A stretch of DNA of 64,000 nt. Origin: Heptranchias perlo. Taxonomy: Eukaryota. The stretch spans positions 86,986,001-87,050,000 of the forward strand of contig NC_090327.1 of assembly GCF_035084215.1 (NCBI RefSeq), given 5' to 3'. How positions within the stretch are numbered: position 1 is the stretch's first letter; every line of letters begins with the position of its first letter. Below are positions 431 through 57,845 of the stretch, one piece after another. The notes below the pieces were generated by a model. That model was given only the letters and a program-made list of their open reading frames with translations. It was not told the origin of the DNA and did not search any database. The translations under genes were made by a program, and so were the position numbers.

Positions 431-3400
431 TAGAAACATAGAAAATAGGATCAAGAGCAGGCCATTCGGCCCTTCGGGCCTGATCGTCTAGCTCAGTACC
501 CTGTTCCAGCTTTTTCCCCATATCTCTTGATCCCTTTAGCATTAAGAAATATATCTATCTCCTCCTTGAATACATCTAATGACTTGGCCTCCACTGCATT
601 CTGTGGTAGAGAATTCCACAGGTTCACCACCCTCTGAGTGAAGAAATTTCTCCTCATCTCGGTTCTAAATGGCATACCCCATATCCTGAGACTGTGACCC
701 CTGGTTCTGGACTCCCCAGCCAACGGGAACATCCTCCCTGCATCTAGTCTGTCTAGTCCTGTTAGAATTTTATATGTTTCGATGAGATCACCTCTCATTC
801 TTCTAAACTCTCGTGAATATAGGCCTAGTCGACCCAATCTCCTCATACGTCAGTTTTGCCATCCCAGGAATCAATCTGGTAAACCTTCGTTGCACTCCCT
901 CCATGGCAAGGACATCCTTCCTCAGATAAGGAGACCAAAACTGCACACAATACTCCAGATGTGGTCTCACCAAGGCCCTGTATAACTGCAGTAAGACATC
1001 CCTGCTCCTGTACTCAAATCCTCTTGCAATGAAGGCCAACATAACATTCGCCTTCCTAACTGCTTGCTGCACCTGAATGCTCGCTTTCAGCGACTGGTGT
1101 ACAAGGACATCCAGGTCTTGTTGCACCTCCCCTTTTCCCAATCTATCACCATTCAGATGATAATCCGCCTTTCTGTTTTTACAACCAAAGTGGATAATCT
1201 CACATTTATCCACGTTATACTGCATCTGCCATGTTCTTGCCCACTCACCCAACTTGTCTAAATCACATTGGAGCCTCTTTGCATCCTCCTCACAGCTCAC
1301 ATTCCACCCCAGTTTTGTGTCGTCTGCAAACTTGGAAATGTTACATTTAGTTCCCTCATCCAAATCATTGATATATATTGTGAATAGCTGGGGCCCAAGC
1401 ACTGATCCCTGCGGTACCCCACTAGTCACTGCCTGCCACCCGGGAAAAGACCCGTTTATTCCTACTCTCTGTTTCCTGTCTGTCAACCAATTCTCAATCC
1501 ATGCCAGTATATTCCCCCCAATCCCATGTGCTTTAATTTTGCACACTAACCTCTTGTGTGGGACCTTATCAAAAGCCTTCTGAAAATCCAAATACACCAC
1601 ATCCACTGGTTCTCCCCTATCTATTCTACTAGTTACATCCTTAAAAAGCTCCAGTAGATTTGTTAAGCATGATTTCCCTTTCACAAACCCATGCTGACTT
1701 TGTCCAATCCCGTTAATGCCCTCCAAGTGTTCTGTTATCACATCTTTTATAATAGACTCGAGCATTTTCCCCACTACTGATGTTAGGCTAACTGGTCTGT
1801 AATTCCCTGTTTTTTGTCTCCCTCCCTTTTTAAATAGTGGGGTTACATTTACCACCCTCCAATCTGTAGGAACTGTTACAGAGTCTATCGAATTTTGGAA
1901 GATGATCACCAATGCATGCATTATTTCCAGGGCCACTTCCTTTAGTACTCTGGGACGTAGATTATCAGGCCCTGGGGATTTGTCAGCCTTTAGCCCCATT
2001 AATTTCCCTAGCACTATTTTTTTTACTAATACTGGTTTCCTTCAGTTCCTCCCTCTCACCATACCCTTGGTTCCCTAACATTTCTGGGAGGTTATTTGTG
2101 TCCTCCTTTGTGAAGACAGAACCAAAGTATGTGTTTAATGGTTCTGCCATTTCTTTGTTCCCCATTATAATTTCCCCCATTTCTGACTATAAGGGACCTA
2201 CATTTGTCTTCACTAATCTTTTTCTCTTAACATATTTATTGAAGCTTTTACAGTCAGTTTTTATGTTCCCTGCTAGTTTACTCTCATACTTTATTTTTCC
2301 CCTCTTAATCAATCTTTTTGTCCTCCTTTGTTGAATTCTGAACTGCTCCCAATCCTCAGGCTTGCCGCTTTTTCTGGCAATTTTATATGCCTCCTCTTTG
2401 GATCTAATACTATCCCTAATTTCTTTTGTAAGCCACGGTTGAGCCACCTTTCCTGTTTTATTTTTGCGCCAGACAGGAATGAATAATTGTTGTAATTCCT
2501 GCACACGTTCTTCAAATATTAGCCATTGCCTATCCATCGTTATCCCTTTTAGTAAAGTTCCCCAATCTATCATAGCCAACTCGCACCTCATACTTTCGTA
2601 ATTTCCTTTATTTAGTTTCAGGACCCTAGTTTCGGATTCAACTACTTCACTCTCCATCTTAATGAGGAATTCTATCATGTTATGGTCGCTCTTTCCTAAG
2701 GGAGCCCGCACAACAAGATTGTTAATTAATCCTTTCTCATTGCACAATACCCAGTCTAGGATCGCCTGTTCTCTAGTTGGTTCCTCAAAATATTGGTCTA
2801 GAAAACCATCACGTACACACTCCAGGAATTCCTCCCCCACAGTATTGTTGCTAATTTGGATTGACCAATCTATATGTATATTGAAGTCACCCATGATTAC
2901 AGTTGTACCCTTCTTGCATGCGTCTCTAATTTCCTGTTTAATGCCCTCCCCTACATCTCCATTACTGTTTGGGGGCCTATAGACAACCCCAACAACGTTT
3001 TCTGCCCCTTGGTATTTCTTAGCTCCACCCATACAGATTCCACATCATGATTTTCCGAGCCAATATCCTTCCTCATGATTGCATTGATTTCCTCCTTTAC
3101 TAACAATGCTACCTCACCTCCTTTCCCTTTTTGCCTGTCCTTCCTAAATATTGAATACCCCTGGATGTTCAGTTCCCATCCTTGGTCACCCTGCAGCCGT
3201 GTCTCCGTAATCGCAACTATATCATAACCGTTAATATCTATCTGCGCTGTTAATTCATCTACCTTCTTGCGAATACTCCGCGCATTTGGACACAATGCCT
3301 TTAGACTTGTCTTTTTAAGATTGCTAGTCATCTTAGTTTTATTTTGCACTATGGCCCTATTTGTTTTTCGCCCTTGTTTTCTCTGCTTTCCACTATTGCT

Positions 3401-6190: not shown

Positions 6191-6272
6191 CCAGACTTGT
6201 TTGTGCAATGGACCTTTACTTTAAAAATAACAGTGGGATAACTCTCTAGAGAGCAATAATACAATAAATGTT

Positions 6273-6481
6273 AGGAATCTTACAACACCAGGTTATAGTC
6301 CAACAGTTTTATTTGAAAATCACAAGCTTTCGGAGCTTACCTCCTTCGTCAGGTGAGTGAGTGAAGGAGGTAAGCTCCGAAAGCTTGTGATTTTCAAATA
6401 AAACTGTTGGATTATAACCTGGTGTTGTAAGATTCCTTACATTTGTCCACCCCAGTCCATCACCGGCATCTCCACATCATG
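6273..6481 (+). mobile_element. Penelope-like foldback insertion (inverted arm, direct arm, ~40-nt tail), copy 1
   Basis: 75-bp inverted arms at 6273-6347 and 6363-6437 (1 mismatch). Tail ...GTCCACCCCAGTCCATCACCGGCATCTCCACATCATG. 12-bp TSD ACAATAAATGTT at 6261-6272 and 6482-6493. Confidence 0.85.
6320..6356 (-). ncRNA. Minimal type I hammerhead ribozyme motif
   Basis: Minus strand reads TCAC-CTGACGA-A-GGAG(GTAAG)CTCC-GAAA-GC-TT-GTGA: stem I, CUGANGA core, stem II, GAAA, palindromic mini stem III (AAGCTT), UH, stem I'. Confidence 0.8.
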
Positions 6482-7677
6482 ACAATAAATGTTGGCATGG
6501 AATCATAAAGATCTTCCACCAGTTCAGGCTGTTTTGCATAAATGCACAATACTGTTCTGCTGAAGAACAAATCTGCTTCTTTTGTAATAATAACTTGTTA
6601 GAAACTGTTGCTTGATTTACCTATTTTCTTTTCCTGTCTGCACCTCTCACTTCCCTGTGCCCTTGGTATTTGTGTCCTGGAAACTGGAATTTTTTCACGA
6701 TTTAGAATCCCAGATGATCGGCCAAGGCTCATGTGCAGGACATTGCCAAGGTTGAAAAGAGGAGAGAATAAAAGATAAATCAATAAGTTGTGGTTAGGTG
6801 ACGCCAACCTTGAGTTTTAAAAGCCCAGGAGGAAGGAAAGACTGAGAAATAGAATGAAAACTCTCTCTTCTAAAAAGGGCTGAAAAACAGTTGGGCAGCA
6901 GTATTATCATTATAATAGATGGATGGTATAATGGAATATTCTATCAGACAAAAGATGAATTGCACAGCGGCCCCATTTGGATTCTTGTGGTCAGGTTTAA
7001 AGCTCAAGAATCTGGTCCATGAGGTGAACAATGATTGTGGTTTTTGATTGACAGGCCAAGAGCACCTCCAAAATGCACTTGATCTTCATCCACTCTCTTC
7101 TTTCTCTTGGCTTTCTTTATTTTGTCTTTTTTTTCTCTATCCCTTTATAACTATACAGGTAGGAAAATTGGGTAGAACTGTTATAATTTAATTGTACAGG
7201 ACTATAGGAATGATCTTTGTCTATGGTGTACTGGAACTGTACGATTTTAGGTCATGTGTTCAAGTAAGTGCTGCTCTGCTGCTGTTGTGTTGCTTTATTT
7301 GCTGCTTTGCTGTAATACTTATCTTTTCATTAGGAAAAGAAAACCTTTTCCCTAGTTGACAGAGCACTTAAAACAGCCCGCACAATGAGTTCCCAATTTC
7401 TGCCGAGCCATTTGGATGAGGCATTTTCACGAAGGGCTGAAGGGAAAATTAAAGGCCAAATTAATCAGCCATTTCTTCATGGTGAATTATAGATTGCTGT
7501 TGGCAGCACCTGCAATCAGGTTGCAAACCTTTCCCCATCGTGATCAGCGAACAGGGAATGGAAAGGTTGGGAACATCAATAGGATGAGAAAATACTTAGA
7601 AGTGGGGGTGGATAATTAATATAATAGTATAATTTTTATTTATACTAGTAAATATCAACACCGAGTATCAACAATAT

Positions 7678-17590: not shown

Positions 17591-17649
17591 ATCAGGGTAC
17601 CGGACAGAACTATTCCTTTAAAGGAACCCTGCTGTCCATGTGTAACTGA

Positions 17650-17854
17650 GATGTGGAGATGCCGGTGATAGACTGGGGTGGACAAATGTAAGGAATCTTA
17701 CAACACCAGGTTATAGTCCAACAGTTTTATTTGAAATCACAAGCTTTCGGAGTTTACCTCCTGTGTCACCTGACGAAGGAGGTAAACTCCGAAAGCTTGT
17801 GATTTTCAAATAAAACTGTTGGACTATAACCTGGTGTTGTAAGATTCCTTACAT
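17650..17854 (-). mobile_element. Penelope-like foldback insertion, copy 2
   Basis: Tail at 17650-17685. Inverted arms at 17686-17762 and 17777-17854 (1 indel). 15-bp direct repeat CATGTGTAACTGAGA at 17637-17651 and 17852-17866. Confidence 0.85.
17766..17802 (+). ncRNA. Minimal type I hammerhead ribozyme motif
   Basis: TCAC-CTGACGA-A-GGAG(GTAAA)CTCC-GAAA-GC-TT-GTGA. Confidence 0.8.
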
Positions 17855-19772
17855 GTGTAACTGAGAAAGTGACTAAGAGCATCTTCTGCAACACTGTTCT
17901 GCATTTCCTCAGCTACCATATAGGGCCATTGTTTCATGTGCTGTTTCCTTATCCTGAACAATCAAAATCAAAAAATATTCTGGACAAAGTTCAAATGCAG
18001 TACAAACAATGTATTATACTATTTTGTGTCATGAGTGATGTTTCTGCTTTCCCATGGTGCTTTTCCTTCGTGCTAGGCATTGTGTGTACCGTCTAACCTC
18101 TAATCTTCCTCTAAGTGATTGCCCTGTGGAAAGCATAAGTGCGTTGGCTACCTGCAGGGTTCCAGTGAAACTTGGATGAGATTCAGGTGGCCTTGTACCT
18201 CATTGTGCTGGTTCCTGAAATGGCCTTGCAACTGATTCAGCCATGTCGGCTGCTGCTTTTGCTATGCCTGCTTTCTGGCAGATCTACTGTCACTTGTGCA
18301 GGGGTGTTAAGTGGATAAGATCCAGCATCACCCTCGGAAACAACACCCCAACGTGTATCTACTCCACAAATATCCCTGATGCTGGGCGATCCCTCAGCAG
18401 ATCCATTAATCTGCATAGGAACATACCTAATGGCAACAGTAACGTCTGTGAAATCCTGTCTCATCCAATCTCCCAGTATGCTAAACTGGATAAGAGAACC
18501 TTTTATAAATTGGAAACCACGGTCTCTATAGCAGCAATCTGAGCATTCCCAAGAGATATTCTGACATGGGATTTAGCATCTGCACCTCTGAAGGTTCCCC
18601 TACAGATGTCTCTGGAGATGTCAAATGCTGCCAGGTAGACGGCAGTGCAGACAACTGTTCATCCACAATTGCATAGATGCAGCTAATGGATTCCTCCACA
18701 TTCTTTGTCAACCTTGCAGGATACTCCAGTGATTGCAATCTCCATTTAAACACAAGCCCTGTACTGCAGCTGAGAAAGGAACAAAGCTGGCCTGCTGGGC
18801 GGTAGGTGACCTCTCCTCATCTGCTACCATCACTTGCTCCTCCTTACCCATGCCCTGTAATGCATCCAGCACTACCTCCTCAAGCTAACTATCTACATCC
18901 TCTGAGGTACGCGTAGCTATGCTGGTAATTGCAAAGGGTGGTGAGAGTGAGTCAGGATGCTGTGAGGTCTTGGCTTGCTTAGGAACATTGAAGTGCTGGC
19001 AGGCTGTTCTTCCAGGCCTACAAAATCAGAAGAGGAACATATTTCACAATGCTGTTCCAAGAAGCATCTTTAAACAGCGCTTGCATAACAATACACTGTG
19101 TGATCTTTTTTAATGACTGAATGTATTCCAGTGTGTCAGTTAGTGAGTAAGGGGACAACATATAACAAGAAGGGAATGCACTAGTTCTAAGCTTAGGATG
19201 GTCTCCATGCTCTTATCATGTCCAGAGTGGCCTTCTCAAAAGCAGTCAAGAGTTTGTAGTTTCTGGGCCCTCCTCCAATTTGTGTCTGTGGTATGGAACA
19301 AATGCAAGTAGCAATTTGAAACTGAAACTCCTGTCACATTGAAATCCTAAAGGAGTTAGTTGCAGCAAATCCAGTTTGGGTCTGTTTCCGGCAATGAAGT
19401 ACCATCTTGTTCTGCAAACAAGGTGTTGAGATGTTGCAAATTTTGACAGCACATAAAACGATAGAAGTCACCCATCTTGTGTGATAAGAAATGAGTGTGC
19501 ATTATGCAACTAAGTTGTCACACAAGGATTTGCTGCATTTAAGATCTCAGTGCAACAGAGGTTTCAGATTGGAATTGCTGCTTGTATCTATGACATGCCA
19601 CAGTATGGCCATGCATGGTAAGCATGTAATGGGTTGATTCTGCCCAGCAGGACTGAACAGAATAAGCTTTGAAGGGAGCAGCAGTAATTGAGTTACAAGT
19701 TATCAGGAAACACTTTTTTCCATGTGTACTAGGAGCAGCTATTTGGCATAGAAAGCTATTCTTTAGCCTTAC

Positions 19773-21050: not shown

Positions 21051-24000
21051 AAGGTTCTGCTGAGAGAGTTTGAGCAGCTAGGGACTAAATTAAAAAGCAG
21101 AACCACAAAGGTAATAATCTCTGGATTATTACATGAGCCACGAACAAATTGGCATAAGGTCAATAGGATCAGGGAGATAAATGCATGGCTCAAAGATTGG
21201 TGTGGGAGAAGTTGGGTTTCGATTCATGGGGCACTGGCACCAGTACCGGGAAAGAGAGAGCTGTTCCATTAGGACGGACTAGACCTGAACCATGCTGGGA
21301 CCAGAGTTCTAGTGAATCAAATAAATAGGGAGGTAGATAGGGCTTTAAACTAAATAAGGGGTGGGGGAGGGTCCCAGTGGAGAGAAATCTAGAATGCTAA
21401 AGAGAAAAGACAAAGAAGCAGTGCAGGAAAGTGACTGGGGTAAGGATAACCAGATTGTGTCAGGAAGGGACAGAGCATACAAACAAAAGAGTGCACTAAC
21501 ATTTAGGGTCCGGGTAAGAAAAAAACTGGTAATAAGACAAATAGGGCCATAGTACAAAAAAATGTTAAGATGTCTAAAAATGTTAAAAAGACAAATCTAA
21601 AGGCACTGTATCTGAACGCACAACGCATTCGTAATAAGGTAGATGAATTAACAGCACAAATAGATGTAAACGGATATGATACAAGTGCAATTACGGAGAC
21701 ATGGCTGCAGGGTGACCAAAGCTGGGAGCTGAATATGCAAGGGTATTCAATATTTAGGAAGGACAGGCAAAAAGGAAAAGGAGGTGGGGTGACATTGTTA
21801 GTAAAGGATGAAATCAGCAATAGTGAGAAAGGATATTGGCTCAGAAAATCAAGATGTAGAATCAGTTTGGATGGAATTAAGAAGCACTAAGGGCCAGAAA
21901 ACACTGATGGGAGTTGTCTATAGGCCTCCAAACAGTAGTGGTAATGTAGGGGATGACATCAAACAGGAAATTAGAGATGCATGTAACAAGGGTTCTACAG
22001 TAATCATGGGTGACTTTAATCTACATATAGACTGGCCAAACCAAATTAGCAATAATACTGTAGAGGATGAATTCCTGGAGTGTGTACGAGATGGTTTTTT
22101 AGACCAGTACATTGAGAAGCCAACCAGGGAACAGGCTATCCTAGATTGGGTATTGTGCAATGAGAAGGGGTCAATTAATAATCTTGTTGTGCGGGGTCCT
22201 TTAGGGAAGAGTGACCATGACATGATAGAATTCTTCATTAAGATGGAAAGTGAAGTAGTCCAATCCGAAACTAGGGTCCTAAATCTAAACAAAGGAAACT
22301 ACGAAGGTATGAGGAGTGAGTTGGCTATGATAGATTGGGGAGCATCATTAAAAGGCATGACGGTGGATAGGCAATGGCTAACTTTTAAGGAACAAATGCA
22401 TGAATTGCAACAATTATACATTCCTTTCTGGCACAAAAACACAAAAGGAAAAGTGGCCCAACAATGGCTAACAAAAGAAATTAAGAATAGTATTAGATCC
22501 AAAGAGGAGACATATAAAGTTGTCAGAAAAAGTAGCAAGCCTGAGGATTGGGAGTAGTTTAGAGTTCAGCAAAAAAGGACTAAGAGATTGATTAAGAGGG
22601 GAAAAAGAGAGTAAAATTGATTAAGAGAGTAAACTTGCAAGGAACATAAAAGTGGACTGTAAAAGCTTCTACAAGTATGTAAAAAGAAAAAGATTAGTGA
22701 AGGCAAATGTAGGTCCCTTACAGTCAGAAACGGGAGAATTTATAATGGGGAACAAGGAAATGGCAGAGCAATTAAACAAATACTTTGGTTCTGTCTTCAC
22801 GGAAGAAGACACAAATAACTTCCCAGAAATGCTAGGGAACCAGGGGACTAGTGAGAAGGAGGAATTAAAGGAAATTAGTATTAGTAAAAAAATAATGCTG
22901 GAGAAGTTAATAAATCCCCAGGGCCTGATCATCTGCATCCCAGAATACTAAAAGAGGTAGCCATGGAAATAATGGATGCATTGGTTGTCATCTTCCAAAA
23001 TTCTATAGATTATGGAACAGTTCCTGCAGATTGGAGGGTGGCCAATGTAACCCCACTATTTATAAAAGGAGGGAGAGAGAAAACAGGGAACTACGGACTG
23101 GTTAGTCTTTCATCAGTTGTACGGAAAATGCTAGAGTCTATTATAAAGGATGTGATAACAGGACACTTAGAAAATATCAACGGGATTAGACAAAGTCAAC
23201 ATGGATTTATGAAAGGGAGATCATGTTTGACAAACCTACTGGAGTTTTTTGAGGATGTAACTGGTTGAATAGATAAGGGAGAACCAGTGGATGTGGTTTA
23301 TTTGGATTTTCAGAAGGCCTTTGATAAAGTCCCACATAAGAGGTTAGTGTGCAAAATTAAAGCACATGGGATTGGGGGTAATATACTGGCATGGATTGAA
23401 AATTGGTTGACAGACAGGAAACAGAGAGTAGGAATAAATGGGTATTTTTCAGGGTGGCAGGCAGTGACTAGTGGGGTACTGCAGGGATCAGTGCTTGGGC
23501 CCCAGCTATTCACAATATATATCAATGATTTGGATGAGGGAACCAAATGTAATATTTCCAAGTTTGCTGTCAACACAAAACTAGGTGGGATTGTGAGTTG
23601 TGAGGAGGATGCAAAGAGGCTTCAAGGCAATTTAGACAAGTTGAGTGAATGGGCAAATACATGGCAGATGCAGTATAATGTGGATAAATGTGAAATTATC
23701 CACTTCAGAAGGAAAAACAGAAAGGCAGAGTATTATTTAAATGTCGATAGATTGGGAAATGTTGATGTACAAAGGGACCTGGGTGTCCTTGTACACCAAT
23801 CCCTGAAAGCAAACATGCAGGTGCAGCAAGCAGTTAGGAAGGCAAATGGCATGTTGGCCTTCATTGCAAGAGGATTTGAGTACAGGAGCAAGGATGTCTC
23901 ACTGCAGTTATACAGGGCCTTGGTGAGACCACACCTGGAGTATTGTGTGCAGTTTTGGTTTCCTTAGCTAAGAAAGGATATACTTGCCATAGAAGGAGTG

Positions 24001-24503
24001 CAGCGAAGGTTCACCAGACTGATTCCTGGGATGGCAGGACTGTCGCATGAGGAGAGATTGGGTCAACTTGGCCTGTATTCACTCGAGTTTAGAAGAATGA
24101 GAGGGGCTCTCATTGAAACATATAAAATTCTGATAGGGCTAGACAGACTGGATGCAGGGAGGATGTTTCCCCTGGCTGGGGGGGTCTAGAACGAGGGTTC
24201 ACAGTCTCAGGATACGGGGTAGGATATTTAGGACTGAGATGAGCAGAAATTTCTTCACTCAGAGGGTGGTGAACCTGTGGAATTCTCTACCACAGAAGGC
24301 TGTGGCGGCCAAGTCATTGAATATATTTAAGAAGGAGCTAGATAGATTTCTAGACACAAAAGGCATCAAGGGGTATGGGGAGAGAGTGGGAATATGGTAT
24401 CGAGATAGAGGATCAGCCATGATCATATTGAATGGCGGAGCAGGCTCGAAGGGCCGAATGGCCTACTCCTGCTCCTATTTTCTATGTATGTTTCTATCTA
24501 TGT
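21051..24503 (+). mobile_element. CR1 LINE from the ORF1 3' end through the EN-RT ORF2 (frameshifted, with stops)
   Basis: Esterase remnant (VIISGLL..INAWLKDWC), EN at 21570-22557, RT at 22963-23967, tail TTTCTATGTATGTTTCTATCTATGT. ORF2 is very similar to the copy at 431-3857. Confidence 0.95.
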
Positions 24504-27145: not shown

Positions 27146-27560
27146 TAAGTGTAGTACTGTCTAATAAACACTTAAACCATAACCACCGGACCCACATTTT
27201 TGAAAGAAACACAGGTCCTGACGGTGGCAAAAAACAGTGTTATTTTTGTTATTGATTCAAGTCTCTGCATTATTTAATGATTAATAAAATCAATGATATT
27301 AGCTTCAAAGTACAGACAAGTTGTCTCCTTTACCACATGCAATAGTTTTTTCATGTTCTGCATTAACTGATAACAGAGTGTGTAAAGGGGGTTCATATTA
27401 CAGTGATCACAGAATACATTATGGCTTATTATTTTGTATCCATTTGATAATATTTTGGCAGTCATTCATTTATTTTTTCTTTTCAAAGTCAAGCAAATTC
27501 ACAAAAGTTCTGTACATTTGGTAAACACATGTTGCTTGAAATCCTATAACTGCACACATG

Positions 27561-27757
27561 AAGCTAGAAATTGCTGTTGCTGTATAAGCAGATGAAAGCT
27601 TAACAACCTCCTGCGACATTCCTCTGTCCACTATTTTAATTCAATTAACTTACTTATTTTAAATGGGTTAAAGCATCTGCTAAAATAATGGACAGAGGAA
27701 AGTCATAAAAACATGTTAAATATTCCTCTGCTGATATTACATAGTAATTTCTAGGTT
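27561..27757. repeat. Old foldback (MITE-like) palindrome
   Basis: CTAGAAATTGCT..AGCAGATGAA..TTCCTCTGTCCACTATTTTA is mirrored by TAAAATAATGGACAGAGGAA..TTCCTCTGCT..AGTAATTTCTAG. Confidence 0.65.
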
Positions 27758-28559
27758 GATACGTGTTTGGAGTTCAGATGTTGTTCAGAATTCAGATGCT
27801 GTTCGCCTGGAAAATAATGTGCAGGTGTATCTAAAGAAAATAATCTGACAAAAACATGTTTTGAATGGGCTGTGGACTATATATTTGTTTTTAAAATGTC
27901 CTACATGTGTCTCCTTGGTATCTTTAATGAGTGAACTCTTGTGAGAGTTGACATTGCTGACATTACCTCTTTGTAATCAAACAGGTGATTCTGAGCTAGT
28001 CTGAGTGTGTGAGAGAATGAATGATTGATTACATATAAATAACATTGCTAGATAATGTAGGTAGACCTAGCTTTGTTAGAGTATGTTCATGCATAGACTA
28101 TAGCTGGGATTCTTTTCTTAACACAAAGAAAAAATAAGTGCTGCTGATATTACTGATGTTATGGTACAATATGTTACGAGATAATACTACATGCATAAAT
28201 GAAATGAAATGGAGTGAAAACTAGGGATCTTCCAGCCCATGTCCCATTTTGACCATTCTGGCGAACTAGGGCTTTTGTATTGAATAAAAGAACCTAAACT
28301 TTCCACCTACCCTTATAATTCCTTCTTTATTTCTAAATGACGCATCTATTGGGTCAATCTGAACATCAACCAGAAAATGGCAATTTTCCTGGAAGTAAAA
28401 TGCTTTAATTACCATTTCAAAAGGGGACACAACTCCAATAAAGTAGCATAATGGTCCATTCATACTGCACACAATCTGCAAAATAACTGCAGCATAACTG
28501 TAATGATTTCAGGGGGATTTGGTTTAACAAAAGTGGTGTGATATAGTCCCACAACACCT

Positions 28560-30499
28560 TGACGTCACTGCTCAAGCATAATTGTAACCAGCACAAAGCA
28601 AATTTTAAAAATTTTCAAACTTTACCTTTAAACGTTGCAATGTTAGTGAACAGTTGATTGAGGGTCAGCTCATCAGCAATGTTAAAAGTTTTACTGGCAT
28701 TTGGTGATGTTGGTGGTGGTGGTTGTTCCAAGCGGTTGGAGTAGTTCATTTCTTCAGTTTGCAGATCTCCTTGTGAGAACCTGTTAGGTGTGAGAGGCTC
28801 CCTGGCATCACGAGCAGCCATGTGTGCACCACTGCTCTGGTGATGAGTTGCCCACCTTTGTCCTCCTCCTCCTCCTCATCGTCTTCTTCAATGTTGCTGG
28901 CAGACAAGGATGCTTCATGAGCCCATTCGAGCTCCTTCACCTGTAACCCTCTCTGCTGAGCGGTGTTGTGCAGGATGCAACAGACCACTATCATTCTGCG
29001 CACCCTCGCTGGTGAGTACTGAAGGGATCCCCAAATCGATCCAGGCACCTGAAGCACACCTTCAGCATTCCTATGACTTGTTCAGTGACAGACCTGGTGG
29101 TGATGTGGCTCTGGTTGTACCTCTGCTGTGCCTCGTTGATGGGGTTTCTCACAGGTGTCATGAGTCACATCTGCAGGGCATATCCCTGTCTCCAAGGAGC
29201 CAGCCTTCAAATCTGTCTTGCGCGTGGAAGAGGTCCGGGATGTTGGACTCGGGCAAAAGGAATCATGGTAACTGCCAGGGAATCTGGCACACACCTGAAG
29301 AAATCTCTTCCGGTGGTCACAAACCAGCTGTGCACTGATGGAGTGATATCCCTTTTGGTTGATGAACAGTCCTGGCTGATATGGAGGTCCTCGGATTGCC
29401 ACGTGAGTGCAATCAGTTGTGCCCTGCACCAATGGGAAGCCAGCGAGAGAGTTGAAACCCACTGCCCTCTCAGTCTGGCTGATGTCGTCGCAGGAGAAGT
29501 TGACGTAGTCGGATGCCCTGGCAAACAAGCCATCTGTGACCTGTCATATACACTTAGGTGCAGATGACTGAGAGACCCTGGAGATGTCACCAGTGGTGCC
29601 CTGGATGGATTTGGAGGCGTAGAAATTGAGGGCAGTGGTTACTTTGAGTGCGACGGGCAATGCATGGCCACTACGCCCAGCAGCTGTGCATGAAGGAGCG
29701 TGCAGGTATCTGTGACCACCTAGCGACTCAATCTGAGCCTCCTCAGAGAAGTCCAGGAAGCTCAGCCTCTGCCTGTACACCCACTCACGAGAGTAGTGCC
29801 TCCTGCGACATCAGCCCTCCGTTGGTCCCATCTCTGCTCTTCTGCAGGTCCTTGTGGTGTACCTCTGTCTTGTGCACCTGCAACTCCCAGAACAGCATGC
29901 CATGTTTTCTGGGGAAGATGATGTGCCTTCTCCTCAGATATACCATTGAATAAATTCAATGCGCCCCACCATCCTGATGTTGTCAGTTTGAGGGGGCCCA
30001 AAATGTAGGTAAATATGTCTGAACACAAGAATTCTGAGTGTGAACAAAGAAATCTCAGTCTAAGCTCAAAGAACTCCCAGCCAAAGGTTTGTCTGAGAGA
30101 ACTGATTGCCTTGCTGCAAAAACTCAGCTTTTAGTCACATGTATCAATCATTGGTTTAAAGGTCCAAATGAGCTTCAGCTGCAACTCGCCTCCGTTTTCA
30201 TGGCATGTTTCAGAGGCAACGGGAGACATGTTCAGGAGAAGTTCAAATGGTTTGTGTAACTCAATACACAAAAAGTTAATCATATTAAGTGCTTTAAATA
30301 CCTAAATTGGCTCTTTAAATATCGGCCCGCCGACTTTAAGTGCCAGTGGGACTTCTGGGAGCCAGAAGCGCGTGGACTTCTAGGTCAAACCTGGAAGTAG
30401 CCGCATTGGAGCTGGGATGCGATCCCACTCCGATAACTTAGTATTTTCACTGCCCACCCACCCCCACCGTACCCATTCTTGGGGGTTAAAATTTATCCC
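28560..30499 (-). mobile_element. PIF/Harbinger transposon 5' half with a decayed transposase
   Basis: ORF pieces 29544-29780 (ALPVALKVTTALNFYAS), 29082-29528 (GFPLVQGTTDCTHV..KGYHS..RFPGSYHDSF) and 28746-29057 (LQYSP..IVVCCILHN..acidic tract). Terminus GGGGGTTAAAATTTATCCC at 30481-30499. Confidence 0.88.
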
Positions 30500-32644: not shown

Positions 32645-32886
32645 TATTCCTGCCCTCCACCCTATCACAGACCTTTCCCTTTTGTTCTTTTCCTGTCCCC
32701 TTTACCCTGGCTCTGCACTTGCTTAAAAGTTATTCATCGTTAACATCTTCCAGTTCTGATGAAAGGTCATCGATCTGAAACGTTAACTCTGTTTCTCTCT
32801 CCGTAGATGCTGCCTGACCTCGTGAGTGTTTCCAGCATTTTCTGTTTTTATTTCAGATTTCCAGCATCCGCAGTATTTTGTTTTTG
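32645..32886 (+). mobile_element. Penelope-like element 3' end, second family
   Basis: Pyrimidine-rich segment, then a hammerhead motif, then GATGCTGCCTGACC..GAGTGTTTCCAGCATTTTCTGTTTTTATTTCAGATTTCCAGCATCCGCAGT. Confidence 0.7.
32752..32788 (+). ncRNA. Minimal type I hammerhead ribozyme motif
   Basis: AGTT-CTGATGA-A-AGGTC(ATC)GATCT-GAAA-CG-TT-AACT; stem III is the palindrome AACGTT. Confidence 0.75.
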
Positions 32887-35577: not shown

Positions 35578-35749
35578 TGGGTAGAGCTTGACTTTATGAG
35601 ATAGTGTAAAATGGGTGATGACGAGTCGGTAGCCCATTTTACATCTCTCCCGATTTTTCTAATGCAATAAAAATCGGGAGTATTGGAAAACGGGCTGCCA
35701 ACTCACTATCACCCATTTTACACTATTGTACAAAGTCAAGATCTACCCC
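35578..35749. mobile_element. Foldback MITE (Harbinger-like) inserted in the L1
   Basis: GGGTAGAGCTTGACTTT..TAGTGTAAAATGGGTGAT pairs with ATCACCCATTTTACACTA..AAAGTCAAGATCTACCC; flanked by AAG at 35575-77 and 35750-52. Confidence 0.8.
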
Positions 35750-41367: not shown

Positions 41368-42708
41368 ACATAGAAACATAGAAAATAGGAGCAGGAGTAG
41401 GCCATTCGGCCCTTTGAGCCTGATCTGCCATTCAATATGATCATGGCTGATCCTCTATCTCAATACCATATTCCCACTCTCTCCCCATACCCCTTGATGC
41501 CTTTTGTGTCTAGAAATCTATCTAGCTCCTTCTTAAATATATTCAGTGACTTGGCCTCCACAGCCTTCTGTGGTAGAGAATTCCACAAGTTCACCACCCT
41601 CTGAGTGAAGATATTTCTCCTCATCTCAGTCCTAAATGTTCTACCCCGTATCCTGAGACTGTGACCCATCGTTCTGGACCCCCCCAGCCAGGAGAAACAT
41701 CCTCCCTGCATCCAGTCTGTCTAGCCCTATCAGAATTTTATATGTTTCAATGAGATCCCCTCTCATTCTTCTAAACTCGAGTGAATACAGGCCAAGTGGA
41801 CCCAATCTCTCCTCATACGATAGTCCTGCCATCCCAGAGTTCAGTCTGGTGAACCTTCGCTGCACTCCCTCTATGGCAAGTATATCCTTTCTTAGGTAAG
41901 GAGACCAAAACTGCACACAATACTCCAGGTGTGGTCTCACCAAGGCCCTGTATAACTGCAGTAAGACATCCTTGCTCCTGTACTCAAATCCTCTTGCAAT
42001 GAAGGCCAACATGCCTTCCTAACTGCTTGCTGCACCTGCATGTTTGCTTTCAGGGACTGGTGTATAAGGACACCCAGGTCCCTTTGTACATCAACATCCC
42101 TCAATCTATCACCATTTAAATAATACTCTGCCTTTCTGTTTTTCCTTCCGAAGTGGATAACTTCACATTTATCCACATTATACTGCATCTGCCATGTATT
42201 TGCCCACTCACTCAACTTGTCTAAATCTCCTTGAAGCCTCTTTGCATCCTTCTCACAACTCACGATCCCACCTAGTTTTGTGTCGTCAGCAAACTCGGAA
42301 ATATTACATTTGGTTCCCTCATCCAAATCATTGATATATATTGTGAATAGCTGGTGCCCAAGCACTAATCCCTGCGGTACCCCACTAGTCACTGTCTGCC
42401 ACCCAAAAAAGACCCATTTATTCCTACTCTCTGTTTCCTGTCTGTTAATCAATTTTCAATCCATGCCAGTATATTACCCCCAATCCCATGTGCTTTAATT
42501 TTGCACACTAACCTCTTATGTGGGACTTTATCAAAGGCCTTCTGAAAATCCAAATAAACCACATCCACTGGTTCTCCCTTATCTATTCTACCAGTTACAT
42601 TCTCAAAAAACCCCATTAGGTTTGTCAAACATGATTTCCCTTTCATAAATCCATGTTGACTTTGTCTAATCCGTTGATATTTCCAAGTGCCCTGTTATCA
42701 CATCCTTC
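41368..42708 (-). mobile_element. CR1 3' 1.3 kb, same subfamily as 431-3857 and 21051-24503
   Basis: ORFs 42449-42646, 41937-42452, 41641-42012 and 41460-41711; ACATAGAAACATAGAAA tail. Confidence 0.93.
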
Positions 42709-42754
42709 ATGAATTCAAATTAATAAATAATAATTTCAAAGTAGTTATATTGAA

Positions 42755-42932
42755 ATGAATTTCTTTCCTCAAAGAGTGATAAATGTTGGAAGTAATCTAC
42801 CAGGTAGAGCAGTAAGTATTAAACATTAGGAGTATTCAACAAGAAGTTGGATGCTATAATGGGAGAGTTAGGATACTGGCGAGATGACCTTCCATGGGCT
42901 AAATTGTTTTTTCTCATCCTTGCCCTTTATGT
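42755..42932 (+). mobile_element. Very degenerate CR1 3' end
   Basis: AATTTCTTTCCTCAAAGAGTGATAAATGTTGGAAGTAATCTACC resembles NFFTQRVVNxWNSLP. Confidence 0.45.
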
Positions 42933-43351
42933 TCAGTAAATCTGGCCTTCTTTTTTTTGTGTATTATATTGGTTATTTTCCAATTAGCTCTGCCTTTGTA
43001 ATTTCTGCATGGTAACATTTATGGGTTAAGTATCTCATTTTCTGGCTGTTTAAGTACTTAACTGTGATTATGAATCGATTGCTAAAACTGCTCACTACTC
43101 CAGGATCATCCTGGAATGCAAAGATAACCCCTAGCTTTTTTTCTCCACTACAAACCATTTCCTTAAATCCCTCTCCCCTGCCCCCTCCACCCTTACCTCC
43201 GACAACAAGTGAGAGGAGCTCATGGACTTCTTTGTCACTGAGTTCGACACCATCCATTCAGCTGCCTCTGCTGCAAACCTCCCTTTCCCTTGCCCACCAA
43301 TTGTAAACAATTTTACAACACCAAGTTATAGTCCAACAATTTTATTTTAAA

Positions 43352-43392
43352 ATCCACAAGCTTTCGGAGGCTTCCTCCTTCCTCAGGTGAAT
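43352..43392 (-). ncRNA. Minimal type I hammerhead ribozyme motif (minus strand)
   Basis: ATTCAC-CTGAGGA-A-GGAGG(AAG)CCTCC-GAAA-GC-TT-GTGGAT. Confidence 0.78.
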
Positions 43393-43399
43393 TCCTCAC

Positions 43400-43440
43400 A
43401 TTCACCTGAGGAAGGAGGAAGCCTCCGAAAGCTTGTGGAT
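43400..43440 (+). ncRNA. Minimal type I hammerhead ribozyme motif (plus strand)
   Basis: Identical motif, ATTCAC-CTGAGGA-A-GGAGG(AAG)CCTCC-GAAA-GC-TT-GTGGAT. Confidence 0.78.
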
Positions 43441-44824
43441 TTTAAAATAAAATTGTTGGACTATAACTTGGTGTTGTAAAATTGTTTACAATTGTCAACC
43501 CCAGTCCATCACCGGCATCTCCACATCTTGCCCATCAAGCCAAGGTTTCCCCAAGGCTCTCCACTGTCCTAGCCCTAAAATCCTGGTAAGTTCATTAGAT
43601 GGATCAGTGAACCCACCCCCCTCCACTGCCCTTGTAATGAGTTTGTACAAACAACACGGAAACCAGATGCTTTTATTTGGTTGTTCAAGCAGTTTGCAAT
43701 TCCCGTGCTATTTCTGACTTGTAACTTGGATTGTAATAAGGTGCAAATAGGCACATTGTGATCACTGATGATCACATTCACAGCGCATAGAATTAACAAT
43801 CCGAATTCAGATGGTAGTTTAGGGCTAGGGATCGGCTACCTGCTCCCCCAGATATACATGTTATTTTGCATTTTGCATCATTGACCCTAGACAATATCAG
43901 ATCTGTACCACTCAATAATAAAAAAAGGCACCTACCAATGACAACACAATTATTTCTTAATTTAAATTATGATTCCTGCAATTGCACCAAACATACTGAG
44001 CTCACTAGCGCCATTCTGTAATGGCCTAAGTGGCTGTGGCAATCACAGGAAACTTGATCTCACCACTGATTTTAATGGAGGCCATGGTTATGATAATTAG
44101 CTGTTCACCTTTTTTGGCAAGGGAAGCAGCAAAAGTCTCATGAAATTACGGAGAGATGTAAGTAATGGCTAAAGTTACTCATGCCATAATTTCCTGGGGA
44201 CTTACGCGGCAAATCGGGTCCTGTGACGTAGATGCTTTGTTACAATAGTGCAAATCTCCAGCAAATTCTGGGCCATTTAACATAAAAAAAGTTTTTATTT
44301 GATAAATATTCAGACGCTGTGTGAATTAATGACATATTGAATTTTCCAGGGATCTTGAGATGACCATTGCATTCTCACTATTTCTGAAAAACAGTAATGA
44401 GATTCCAATAGGCTTGTCAGTAAGGATCTGGATTAATTTGTGACTTGTGAATTGCAATGTTGGGCTTTGTTCTTATCCTTTCACACCTTTTGTGAGGGAC
44501 AGTAGCTACAGCTTCATTTCTTTGCTGATTAATCCTGTTCCAGAACCCAGAACTCCTAACATAAAACAACTACAACACAGTGTATCTCTAGATACGTGTT
44601 ATAAAGAAAACTTTTTTGAGTTCTTGATAGAATGTTACTGATACCTAAATCTTTCAGATGGGAATGTTATAGCTGGGAGACTCATAAAGAACACAAAACA
44701 ATTTCATTGTATTTTTGTCTTAGACAATCTTGTATTGTCTCACTGAAGTGAGAGAAAGAAAGGTGTTAATAATGTCAGTGCAGATGTTTTGATATTTAAC
44801 ATTTTTTGCAATAAATATAGTAAC

Positions 44825-49234: not shown

Positions 49235-51567
49235 GAACAACAGCAACAGCAACAACTTGTGTTTATATCTCACCTTTAACGTAGTAAAACATCCCAAGGT
49301 GCTTCACAGGAATGTTATCAAACAAAATTTGACACTGAGCCACATAAGAAGATATTAGGACAGGTGACCAAAAGCTTGCTCAAAGAGGTAGATTTTAAGG
49401 AGCATCTTAAAGGAGAAGAGAGAGGTAGAGAGTCAGAGAGGTTTAGGGAGTAAATTCCAGAGCTTAGGACCTAGGCAGGTGAAGGCATGGCCGCCAATGG
49501 TGGAGTGATTAAAATGGGGGACACGCAAAAGGCCAGAATTGGAGGAGCACAGAGATCTCAGAGGATTGCAGGGCTGGAGGAGGTTACAGAGATAGGGAGG
49601 GGCGAGGCCATGAGAATTTTAAAATCGAGGCATTCCTGGTCCGGGACCCAATGTAGGTCAGCGAGCATAGGGGCGATGGGTGAACGGGAATTGGTGCGAA
49701 TTAGGATATAGGCAGCAGAGTTTTGGATGAGTTCAAGTTTGTGGAGGGTGGAAAATGGGAGGCCGGCCAGGAGAGCATTGGAATAGTCAAATCTAGAGGT
49801 AACAAAGGCATGGATGAGGGTTTCAGCAACAAATCAGCTGAGGAAGGGATGGGCAATAAATGCTGGCCTCGCCAGCGACGCCCACATCCCGTGAACGAAT
49901 AAAACAAAAGACGGGTGATGTAACGGAGGTGGAAGCAGGCGGTCATGGTGATGGAGTGGATATGTGGTCGGAAGGTTATCTCAGGGTCAAATAGGACACC
50001 AAGGTTGCGAACGGTCTGGTTCAGCCTCAGACAATGGCCAGGGAGAGGGATGGAGTCGGTGGCTAAGGAATGGAGTTTGTGGTGGGGACCGAAGACAATG
50101 ACTTTGGTCTTCCCAATATATAGTTGGAGGAAATTTTTGCTCATTCTGTACTGGATGTCAGGCAAGCAGTGTGAAAAATCAGAGATAGTGGAAGGGTCGT
50201 GGGGGGTATGGTGAGGTAGAGCTGGGTGTCGTCAGTGTACATGTGGAATCTGACTTTATGTTTTCGGATGATGTTGCTGAGGGGCAGCATGTAGATGAAA
50301 AGTAGAAGGGGCCAAGAACAGATCCTTGGGGGACTCCAGAGGTAACGGTGCAGGAATGGGAAGAGAAACTATTGCAGGTGATTCTCTGGCTACGAGTGGA
50401 TTGATAAGAATGGAGCCAGGTGAGCGCAGTCCCTCCCAGTTGGACGACGGAGGAGAGGCTTTGGATGGGGATGGTGCGGTCAGCTGTGTCAAAGGCTGCA
50501 GACAGGTCAAGAAGGATGAGGAGGGATAGTTTACCACGGTCACAGTCACATAGGATGTCATTTGTGACTTTGATGAGGACTGTTTCAGTACTGTGGCAGG
50601 GCCAGAAACCTGATTGGAGGGACTCAAACATGGAATTGCGGGAAAGATGGATTAGGGATTTAGGAGGCAATAATACCTTCAAGGACTTGGAGAGGAAAGG
50701 GAGGTTGAAGATTGGGCGGTCGTTTGCAAGGGCAGAGGGGTCAAAGGTGGGTTTTTTGAGGAGGTGGTGATGACGGCAGATTTGAAGGGGAGTGGGGGAC
50801 AATACCTGAGGAGAGGGAACGGTTAACAATATCTGCTAACATGGGGGCCAGGAAGGGAAGTTGGGTGGCCAGCAGTTTGGTGGAAACAGTGTCGAAGGAG
50901 CAGAAGGTGGGTCTCATGGTCAAGATGAGCTCGGAGAAGGCATGAGGGGAGATAGGAGAGACACTAGAGAATGATGCAAGTTCAGGGCTGGGGCTGGGGG
51001 TAACTTCAGGGGAAGTTTGGCTTGATGGGCTAGGGGAAGGGAGGGAAGCAGCAGAGGCAGCTGACCGGGTGGCCTCAATCTTAGTGACAAAGATGTCCAT
51101 GAGCTCCTTGCTCTTGTTGTTGGAGGTGAGGGTGGGGGAGGCAGGGGAGAAGGGTTTAAGAAGACGGTTTGTAGTGGAGAAGGGAAGCTGGGGGTTATCT
51201 TTGCATTCCAGGATGATCCTAATGCCATAAATGTTCAAATCTGCGTCCTTTGGACTTAAGGGAGTGAAGATGAGGTCTGTACTGGGAGAATGATCAGGGT
51301 GAGAGAGAGTAATGGCTTTAATGGGGATAAGGGCATCGAAGGTGGAGGTGATGGTATGATTGAGCAGATCGGTATCTGCAGAAATGTCATGGTGAATGGA
51401 GGGCCAAAGGCTAGACATTTGGGAATTTGGAAGTGCCGTTGTAAGTGACTTGGAGGAGAGTTTTTTCCAGGGGTGAACACAGAAAGAAGTGGGTTTGGGA
51501 GGGGGAAGCGGATGTGGATGGAGAGGGATACAAGGAAGTGATCAAAGATGGCCTTATCCATGATTGA
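49235..51567 (-). mobile_element. L2 LINE, 2.3 kb (EN end, RT, 3' end), with a small HE1/HER1 3'-end insertion at ~49845-49908
   Basis: ORFs 50741-51418, 50179-50829 (LDLSAAFDT..GVPQGSVLGP) and 49701-50165; (ACA)n tail. Confidence 0.92.
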
Positions 51568-56386: not shown

Positions 56387-57845
56387 CATAGAAACATAGG
56401 AACAGGAGTAGGCCATTCAGCCCCTCACGCCTATTCCCCCATTCAATTAGATCATGGCTGATCTATATCTTGATTCCATTTACCCATCTTGGTTCCATAT
56501 CCCTTAATACCCTTACCTAACATAAATCTATCAGTCTGAGATTTGAAATTTTCAATTGACCTAGCCTCAATAGCTTTTTGGGGAAAAATTCAAGATTTCC
56601 ACCACCTCTTGTGTGAAGAAGTGCTTCCTGACATCACCCTTGAATGGCTAGCTCTAGTTTTAAGGTTATGCTTGTTCTGGACTCCCCCACCCGAAGAAAT
56701 AGTTTCTCTCTACCCACCCTATCATCTCCTTTAATCATCTTAAACACCTCAATGAGATCACCCCCTAATCTTCTATACTCATGGAATACAAGCCTAGTCT
56801 ATGCAACCTGTCCTCATAATTTAATCTCTTTAACCCCAGTATCATTCAGGTGAATCTGCTCTGCACCACCTCCAAGGCCAATATATCCTTCCTGAGGTGC
56901 AGTGCCCAGAACTGAACGCAGTACTCCAGATGCAGTCTAACCAGAGCTTTATACAACTGTAGTATAACTTCCACCCCTTTATATTCCAGCCCCCTTGAGA
57001 TAAAGGCTAACATTCCATTAGCATTTTAAATTATTTCTGTACTTGTCCACTAGTTTTTGGTGATTTCTGTACATGGACCCCTAAACCTCTTTGCACCTCC
57101 ACAGTTCCTAACTTCTCATCATTTAGAAAATACTTTGATCTCTCTTTCTTAGGTCCAAAGTAGATGACCTCACATTTCCCCACATTTACTCCATCTGCCA
57201 CAGTTTTGCCCACTCACTTAACCTACCAATGCACCTTTGCAACTTTCTGCTCCCATCTGCACTACTTACTGTGGCACCTAACGTAGTGTCATCAGCAAAC
57301 TTGGTTATAAGGCTCTCTATTCCTTCATCTAAGTCATTTATAAATATAGTGAAAAGCTAAGGCCCCAGTACAGATCCCTGGGGGACATCACTAGTCACAT
57401 CCTACCAATTGGAGTACATACCCATTATCCCTATTCCCTGTTTCCTACCTCCTAACCAATTTCCTGCCCATGTCAATAGGCTGCCTCCAATTCCACGCAC
57501 TTCCATTTTTCCTAACAGCCTCTTGTATAGAACCTTATCGCATGCCTTCTGGAAGTCCATATAAATAACATTCATAGACACTCCCTTATCTACCACATTA
57601 GTGATCTCCTCAAAAAATTAATATAGGTCAGTTAGACATGACTTATCCGTTACAAGTCCATGCTGGCTCTCTCTGATCAGTTCATGTTTGTCCAAGAGCT
57701 CAGTCACTCTGTCCCTAATGTCAGATTCTAATAACTTCCCCACAACTGTCTTTAGACTAATAGATCTTTCATTTCCTGGTTTCTCTCTCCCACCCTTCTT
57801 AAATAATGGAGTGACAATGGAAATTTTCCAATCCAAGGAGACAAA
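56387..57845 (-). mobile_element. CR1 3' half, decayed
   Basis: ORFs 57618-57857 (VTPLFKKGGREKPGN) and 57402-57596 (YMDFQKACDKV); CATAGAAACATAGGAACAGG tail. Confidence 0.88.

Follow-up and report, generated by a model that had tools for sequence, protein, structure and literature searches.

A palindrome at 43289-43538 of the 64,000-nt stretch of Heptranchias perlo NC_090327.1 analysed here (the window, within which positions are counted unless prefixed) is probably a promoter-less insertion of the 5' leader of an abundant Penelope-like element (PLE), made by twin priming and head-to-head joining. The first-pass annotation had read the locus as a Penelope-like inverted pseudo-LTR (pLTR) with a minimal type I hammerhead, a tail and a TSD, all of which our analysis bears out, and also as a switch whose transcript either cleaves itself or folds into a hairpin, for which we find no support. 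The window palindrome is one of thousands of like copies, and nothing singles it out.

Structure of the insertion

The 95-bp palindrome is as perfect as had been claimed: the arm at 43298-43392 is the exact reverse complement of that at 43400-43494, 7 nt separate the two, and neither can be lengthened by one base, outward or inward. On either strand the antisense motif comes first, a tail of 33 nt follows on one side only (43495-43527, + strand), and the flanking 12-nt repeats (43289-43300 and 43527-43538) are the same at 11 of their 12 positions, each in agreement with the earlier description. The left TSD copy ends with 3 nt that already belong to the start of the arm (43298-43300, a microhomology) and position 43527 is common to the tail and the right TSD copy, so the insert between the copies is 43301-43526; the tail, which we read as the last part of the 5' UTR, measures 35-36 nt if the three shared bases go to the TSD. 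The right copy is typical of the family, whose matched repeats mostly span 11-15 nt when one mismatch is allowed. The host sequence is a decayed LINE-like coding fragment (43102-43297, + strand, resuming after 43538), which we take to be of L2/CR1 type and which is 84% identical to 51022-51220, a segment adjoining an RVT_1 frame at 50179-50835. This paralogue is uninterrupted across the site, and the flanking repeat is thus a real TSD; at the mismatched TSD position it has the letter of the right copy (a single paralogue, 82% identical).

Leader positions are counted from C3 of the hammerhead core (43406 on the + strand). The tailed arm (43397-43527, + strand) comprises 131 nt of leader, from C3-9 to the base before the ORF ATG, and is present verbatim in a longer element copy (L034), which makes the window insertion a young copy of the 5' leader. 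Its start lies 32 nt past the first T of the TATA-like box of its subfamily; the box itself sits 41 nt upstream of C3 there and is missing from the window copy. The untailed arm (43298-43392, - strand) runs from C3-6 to a short 3' end at about C3+85. Between the arms, the 7-nt spacer consists of 3 nt of the element and a 4-nt junction filler (43393-43396) that is missing from L034; the filler and the next two bases repeat 43380-43385, a direct repeat read in the sequence, and the filler is likely a templated insertion.

The fold z of the palindrome is -27, well beyond what chance would give. We rejected an assembly artefact in view of the TSD, the thousands of copies with differing centres and the right junction (43503-43900), which is spanned by DNA contigs of one sample (runs X1 and X2). 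No DNA contig spanning the left junction or the whole palindrome was found among the matches listed for one sample, nor was an empty allele among the 15 of 101 contig joints listed at the locus.

The window holds two further palindrome and tail insertions with TSDs, at ~6266-6490 and ~17640-17866, which share 87-89% identity with the 43289-43538 palindrome, belong to an older sister subfamily and have both lost the start of the core from the tailed arm. Another minimal hammerhead-like motif, with a CUGAUGA core and different stems, lies in an unrelated repeat at 32756-32784 (+ strand). Two other inverted repeats are a degenerate, MITE-like one of 170 bp (35579-35748, 79%), in which no hammerhead motif was found, and an old AT-rich one of 200 bp (27558-27760, 68%). 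A fragment at 29082-29543 (- strand) matches DDE_Tnp_4 (E 2e-9) and is presumably a PIF/Harbinger-type transposase, and related LINE copies with RT- or endonuclease-like frames, 66-95% identical and presumably of CR1 type, occupy 436-3367, 21534-24487, 41371-42710 and 56387-57833.

The hammerhead motif

Each arm carries the type I core previously described for it: stem I, CUGAGGA, an extra A, stem II (GGAGG-aag-CCUCC), GAAA-GC-UU and stem I'. In a motif scan the minimal type I motif occupies 43400-43440 on the + strand (C3 at 43406), with a palindromic stem III region and a predicted cut between 43434 and 43435, after GCUU as had been proposed, and 43352-43392 on the - strand (C3 at 43386), where the NUH rule predicts a cut at 43358/43357. 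The proposed comparison of the core and of stem II pairing across genomic copies supports the assignment. In 18 recurrent haplotypes (those seen at least three times, which cover 176 of 250 arms and leave out 63 rarer haplotypes) none of the 11 core positions varies and 13 other positions do, pairing being kept in 90 of 90 cells in stem II and 103 of 108 in stem I, with the compensatory series G-C/G-U/A-U and C-G/U-G/U-A in the stems. The invariant core and compensatory stem changes imply that selection acts on the motif in source elements, and it is to this selection, as read from these haplotypes, and not to any at the window copy, that we ascribe its conservation.

The Rfam hammerhead model, also put forward as a check, returned no hammerhead match at E <= 5 or <= 10, and the window palindrome drew only hairpin-type matches under the gathering score; these are generic hairpins, and a miRNA identity was rejected. 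The identification as a hammerhead is made from sequence and covariation, the Rfam models not having scored the minimal form. When two copies were cofolded, the predicted intermolecular structure ran via stems I and II and did not take the form of a stem III dimer.

The parent element

Longer copies of the arm continue into an RT frame. The tail followed by ATG gave 1,306 matches genome-wide, and 12 of 30 such loci that were read are open through all 503 codons in view. Two loci, L246 (G000:C1:4459500-4468900, minus strand) and L262 (G000:C1:188729500-188739400), are tandem arrays of units of ~3,081 bp arranged head to tail; their 902-aa ORFs are intact, and each unit carries one ribozyme with 121 nt from C3 to an ATG that directly follows the tail. 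The ORFs of the two arrays differ at a few residues, their stem II has the A-U form of the compensatory pair, and their sequences mark them as likely recent source elements. By comparison with these units, we identify the window arm as the 5' leader of the parent element, its tail ending at the ORF ATG. Contigs of four putative RNA runs from one sample covered the repeat and left the unique flanks (42900-43069 and 43546-43900, two runs checked) uncovered, and none of the 15 of 90 contig joints listed was a GT..AG joint on the full-length unit.

The 902-aa protein matches RVT_1 (E 3e-10). Pfam GIY-YIG gave no match to the protein itself and scored above cut-off in a relative (P0011, 45-46% identical), and GIY-YIG-like blocks align with the 902-aa protein, which also contains a DKG motif, a CCHH motif with two cysteines between GIY and YIG (sequence, alignment A1) and, ahead of the endonuclease, a CX4CxxC linker conserved in the same alignment. 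Among named homologues the closest come from sharks (93%, 87% and 80%) and turtles, and a PDB sequence search gave one weak RT match (E 0.84). The family has the features of EN+ PLEs, namely a single ORF with RT and C-terminal GIY-YIG, DKG and CCHH, and tandem pLTRs with a hammerhead, whilst the window locus has their insertion layout: an inverted 5'-truncated copy, a one-sided 30-40 bp tail and a TSD. On published criteria, which include DKG, CCHH and the CX2-5CxxC linker of Neptune and Nematis (PMC8557442), we classify the parent from its sequence as a canonical EN+ PLE of Neptune/Nematis type (either clade).

Arm ends across copies and a proposed mechanism

Pattern matches in the 3.25-Gb genome returned 12,412 exact copies of the 35-nt ribozyme, at least 2,645 palindromes that share the core of the window palindrome and whose motifs lie <=30 nt apart, and, as a count of arms, 68,428 exact copies of a downstream 19-mer; reversed-pattern controls gave no matches. 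The insertions, present in thousands of copies, are commonly about 220-240 bp. In 864 kb of unselected sequence we counted 46 arms, 34 in head-to-head pairs and 12 unpaired, the unpaired arms showing both types of 3' end (8 tail, 4 short). Across 330 catalogued arms these ends were bimodal (174 tail, 148 short, 8 other), the short class having its mode at +84 to +88 and the tail class lying at +121 in 161 of 174 arms, a position that is bounded by the last base of the query; the arms thus have two fixed 3' ends ~35 nt apart. A TSD was present in 120 of 125 head-to-head pairs and 117 of these 120 joined a tailed to an untailed arm, two of the three exceptions having partial tails, and three tail-to-tail neighbours occurred among the catalogued arms. 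The tailed arm reached further 5' in 40 of the 117 pairs and the untailed arm in 45, with a tie within 2 nt in 32, so that either arm may be the longer, as expected of two independent cDNAs. In several pairs the untailed arm was longer by >1 kb, and copies of this layout range continuously in size up to 3.7 kb, where they contain the ORF.

At the other end of the arms, the 5' ends of short arms cluster ~30 nt past the TATA-like box and not at the ribozyme cut. Of 120 arms unselected for the ribozyme, 57 start at C3-20 to 0, 32 are long, 13 start at +1 to +26, one at +27 to +31, 10 at +32 to +50 and seven elsewhere, and a single arm starts within 2 nt of the predicted cut. In subfamily A the box lies at -46 to -48 and the 5' mode at -17 to -15; in subfamily B the box lies at -38 to -40 and the mode at -10, where the peak partly coincides with a 3-nt microhomology. 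Both modes equal box+29 to +31, and starts at box+28 to +32 account for 21 of 41 arms (A) and 36 of 64 (B), the reference for each arm being the longest match, which can add 1-2 nt to the 5' end. The shift between the subfamilies has P = 8e-8 over all arms and P = 0.08 if the loci that had been selected for a tight centre are excluded (36 vs 14 arms); a 2x2 comparison of windows (15/3 vs 3/26) has P = 7e-7, the windows having been picked after seeing the data. It is the spacing that suggests a transcription start here and a role for the TATA-like box. A splice-acceptor origin of these ends was rejected, as no AG was found ahead of the clustered 5' ends.

Eight of the 120 unselected arms start at +31 to +39, just behind the predicted cut at +29, as BLAST starts in AT-rich sequence, and cleaved RNA may have been the template for some arms. 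Three arms (G000:C1:1370967, 1401949 and 2084951) start at C3+31, two bases behind the predicted cut, with microhomology at each junction.

We propose that the endonuclease of the element would cut both target strands ~12 nt apart, and that reverse transcription would start at the two boundaries of the tail, one start being primed by each 3'-OH. With the protein on the 5' pLTR of an uncleaved transcript, both cDNAs would run off at the transcription start, which would lie 8-17 nt before the core of the ribozyme. Their free ends would then be joined head to head via microhomology or a short filler and each cDNA would template the second strand of the other. The template would be uncleaved RNA because both arms span the cut site, and every palindrome centre would hold two whole hammerheads because the ribozyme sits 8-17 nt inside the 5' end of the RNA. 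The window palindrome fits this scheme, with a tailed arm from -9 (box+32), an untailed arm from -6 and 4 nt of filler. Published work describes PLE transcripts that start in the upstream pLTR (PMC6765202), and a Poseidon protein that in vitro cuts and extends both strands, with two internal start sites bounding the tail (PMC11167929), this protein belonging to a different clade from the shark element; against our reading of the TATA-like box, the Drosophila Penelope promoter is described as TATA-less and internal (PMC2377424). A literature search, with most subscription papers outside its reach, found no twin-priming and run-off account for PLEs.

Alternative explanations

The reading that survives best beside twin priming, although we consider it unlikely, is fold-back or self-priming, in which a tail-end cDNA would fold back at its 3' end and serve as its own template, or an antisense transcript would prime its own copying; self-priming on an antisense transcript has been proposed for PLE inverted junctions (PMC3846280). 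Several results count against twin priming in that they also fit fold-back on a single template. In the 84 of 125 pairs that could be aligned (with a TSD, one short and one tail end, and both cores present) the arms were identical from C3 to about +77 in 43, and 73 showed no difference at a common family variant, as against 12% of random cross-locus pairs. Long and short arms were also concordant in 45 of 47 pairs (7 both long, 38 both short, 2 mixed; P = 6e-7). Fold-back would also suit the short palindromes and microhomology found at 33 of 74 centres. A fold-back copy could not, however, outreach its tailed template in the 5' direction, yet the untailed arm is the longer in 45 of 117 pairs, and an untailed first strand would be unable to template a tail. 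The short end also terminates unpaired arms, and in 11 of the 84 pairs the arms differ at a common family variant, two of them at linked sites, a difference not obtainable from DNA fold-back. The shared variants and concordant lengths point to one leader or one source locus in the usual case, and the 11 pairs with different variants suggest that a minority of insertions drew on two templates, unless gene conversion is the cause. The linked differences are at G000:C1:2766136 and 5625350, which are candidates for two-RNA insertions.

We think it improbable that the palindrome is a non-autonomous element in its own right (MITE- or retrozyme-like), copied as a unit with the hairpin and ribozymes as its working parts. 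The thousands of ~220-240 bp copies would suit such an element, as would one centre that recurs many times in subfamily B. The centres vary between loci, however, in length, filler and microhomology (of 74 short pairs, 33 have microhomology, 33 filler and eight are blunt), and even with the recurrent B centre it depends on the locus whether the longer side belongs to the tailed or to the untailed arm. The same layout moreover extends up to the 3.7-kb copies that enclose the ORF, the unit contains no TATA-like box, and retrozymes are described as tandem, not inverted (bioRxiv 10.64898/2026.07.22.740005); a retrozyme identity was rejected, the two motifs being inverted with variable centres and not arranged in head-to-tail tandem units.

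A switch at the level of the locus, whereby a transcript would self-cleave or else form dsRNA feeding Dicer or ADAR, seems very improbable. It could draw on the intact, family-conserved core, on a computed hairpin of -176 kcal/mol and on small RNAs reported from PLE copies in a rotifer (PMC3846280). A lone arm is predicted to fold into stems I and II (probabilities 0.33 and 0.94, equilibrium folding). In five read-through models, also of equilibrium folding and including transcripts that end just past the ribozyme, the probability of stems I and II was 0.0000 on both strands, because the antisense arm is transcribed first, and the either-or choice is therefore unsupported: the hairpin is predicted to block both hammerheads of the window palindrome. 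Minimal hammerheads are described as inactive as monomers and weak as dimers (PMC4209133), and the Anolis ribozyme as requiring protein (PMC11167929). The conservation of the core speaks for source elements and not for the window copy, and the recognisable window frames of >=150 aa are transposon debris. A Dicer or ADAR substrate role is plausible for any palindromic copy that is transcribed.

It is barely credible that the ribozyme structure, through polymerase stalling or cleavage, fixed the 5' ends in place of a transcript start, since although these ends lie near stem I and 13 and 10 of the 120 unselected arms start at +1 to +26 and +32 to +50, the RT would come upon the structure from its 3' side, yet the mode lies beyond the 5' side and shifts with the box-to-ribozyme spacing, with just one arm in 120 within 2 nt of the cut.

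Returning to twin priming, we lean towards a version in which a dimeric RT-endonuclease would prime both strands at the tail boundaries, with run-off at the capped start, usually on one leader and sometimes on two RNAs (possibly paired via the palindromic hammerhead). The insertion in the window is probably inert, as it has no promoter box and no ORF and its read-through product would be a 95-bp hairpin that blocks the ribozyme.

Significance and comparison with known systems

The locus itself carries little weight, being one among thousands of dead insertions, and its layout is already published for PLEs, of which the shark family is a further member. The origin of PLE inverted repeats and one-sided tails has been described as undefined (PMC8557442), and the in vitro system of PMC11167929 makes it testable. 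The copies lead to three predictions, namely that each insertion should pair a tailed arm with an untailed one, that the lengths of the two should be independent, and that 5' ends should lie at the transcription start and not at the ribozyme cut; the intact, near-identical tandem ORFs of the family suit insertion assays. If the proposed mechanism is true, dual-strand priming would take the place of self-priming as the account of PLE inverted repeats and explain the asymmetry of the tail, the genome would contain thousands of hairpins of hammerhead and antisense directed against the leader of the element itself, and the shark palindromes would be a genome-wide footprint of PLE integration.

An inverted 5'-truncated copy with a one-sided 30-40 bp tail and a TSD is the standard PLE layout (PMC8557442; Pen2a_Av in PMC3846280). 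The window locus resembles EN+ PLE units in its head-to-head inverted pLTR, 33-nt one-sided tail, TSD and pLTR hammerhead, but differs from the published units in that the shark copies are minimal (~230 bp, without an ORF) and number thousands, and in that both arms stop just upstream of the ribozyme. The self-priming account of such junctions in PMC3846280 does not fit the shark arm lengths.

Minimal hammerheads have been described in PLE pLTRs, with dual opposite-strand motifs 100-700 bp apart in Schistosoma (PMC4209133). The shark motif, known here as a predicted variant, is like the metazoan PLE hammerheads of that paper in its CUGANGA and GAAA core, the unpaired base between positions 9 and 10.1, the G10.1-C11.1 pair and the palindromic stem III region; the available part of the paper names no sharks. 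In the Poseidon element PAc of Anolis carolinensis a dimer is predicted and uncleaved RNA is the dominant template (PMC11167929). By genomic inference the shark element would share with PAc two internal RT starts bounding the tail, extension of both strands and an uncleaved template, whereas the PAc ORF starts inside the ribozyme, with the tail within the ORF, and the ribozyme and tail of the shark element lie wholly in the 5' UTR. The portion of PMC11167929 available to us draws no link from two-strand priming to inverted copies.

The shark protein further differs from Penelope and Poseidon in its CX4CxxC linker, which they do not possess. In L1 twin priming both cut strands prime cDNA, the inversion junction shows microhomology and the TSD is kept, and in L1 inversions a single RNA is divided between two parts that do not overlap. 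Unlike these, the two shark arms are both copies of the same leader, each begun at a fixed site of its own.
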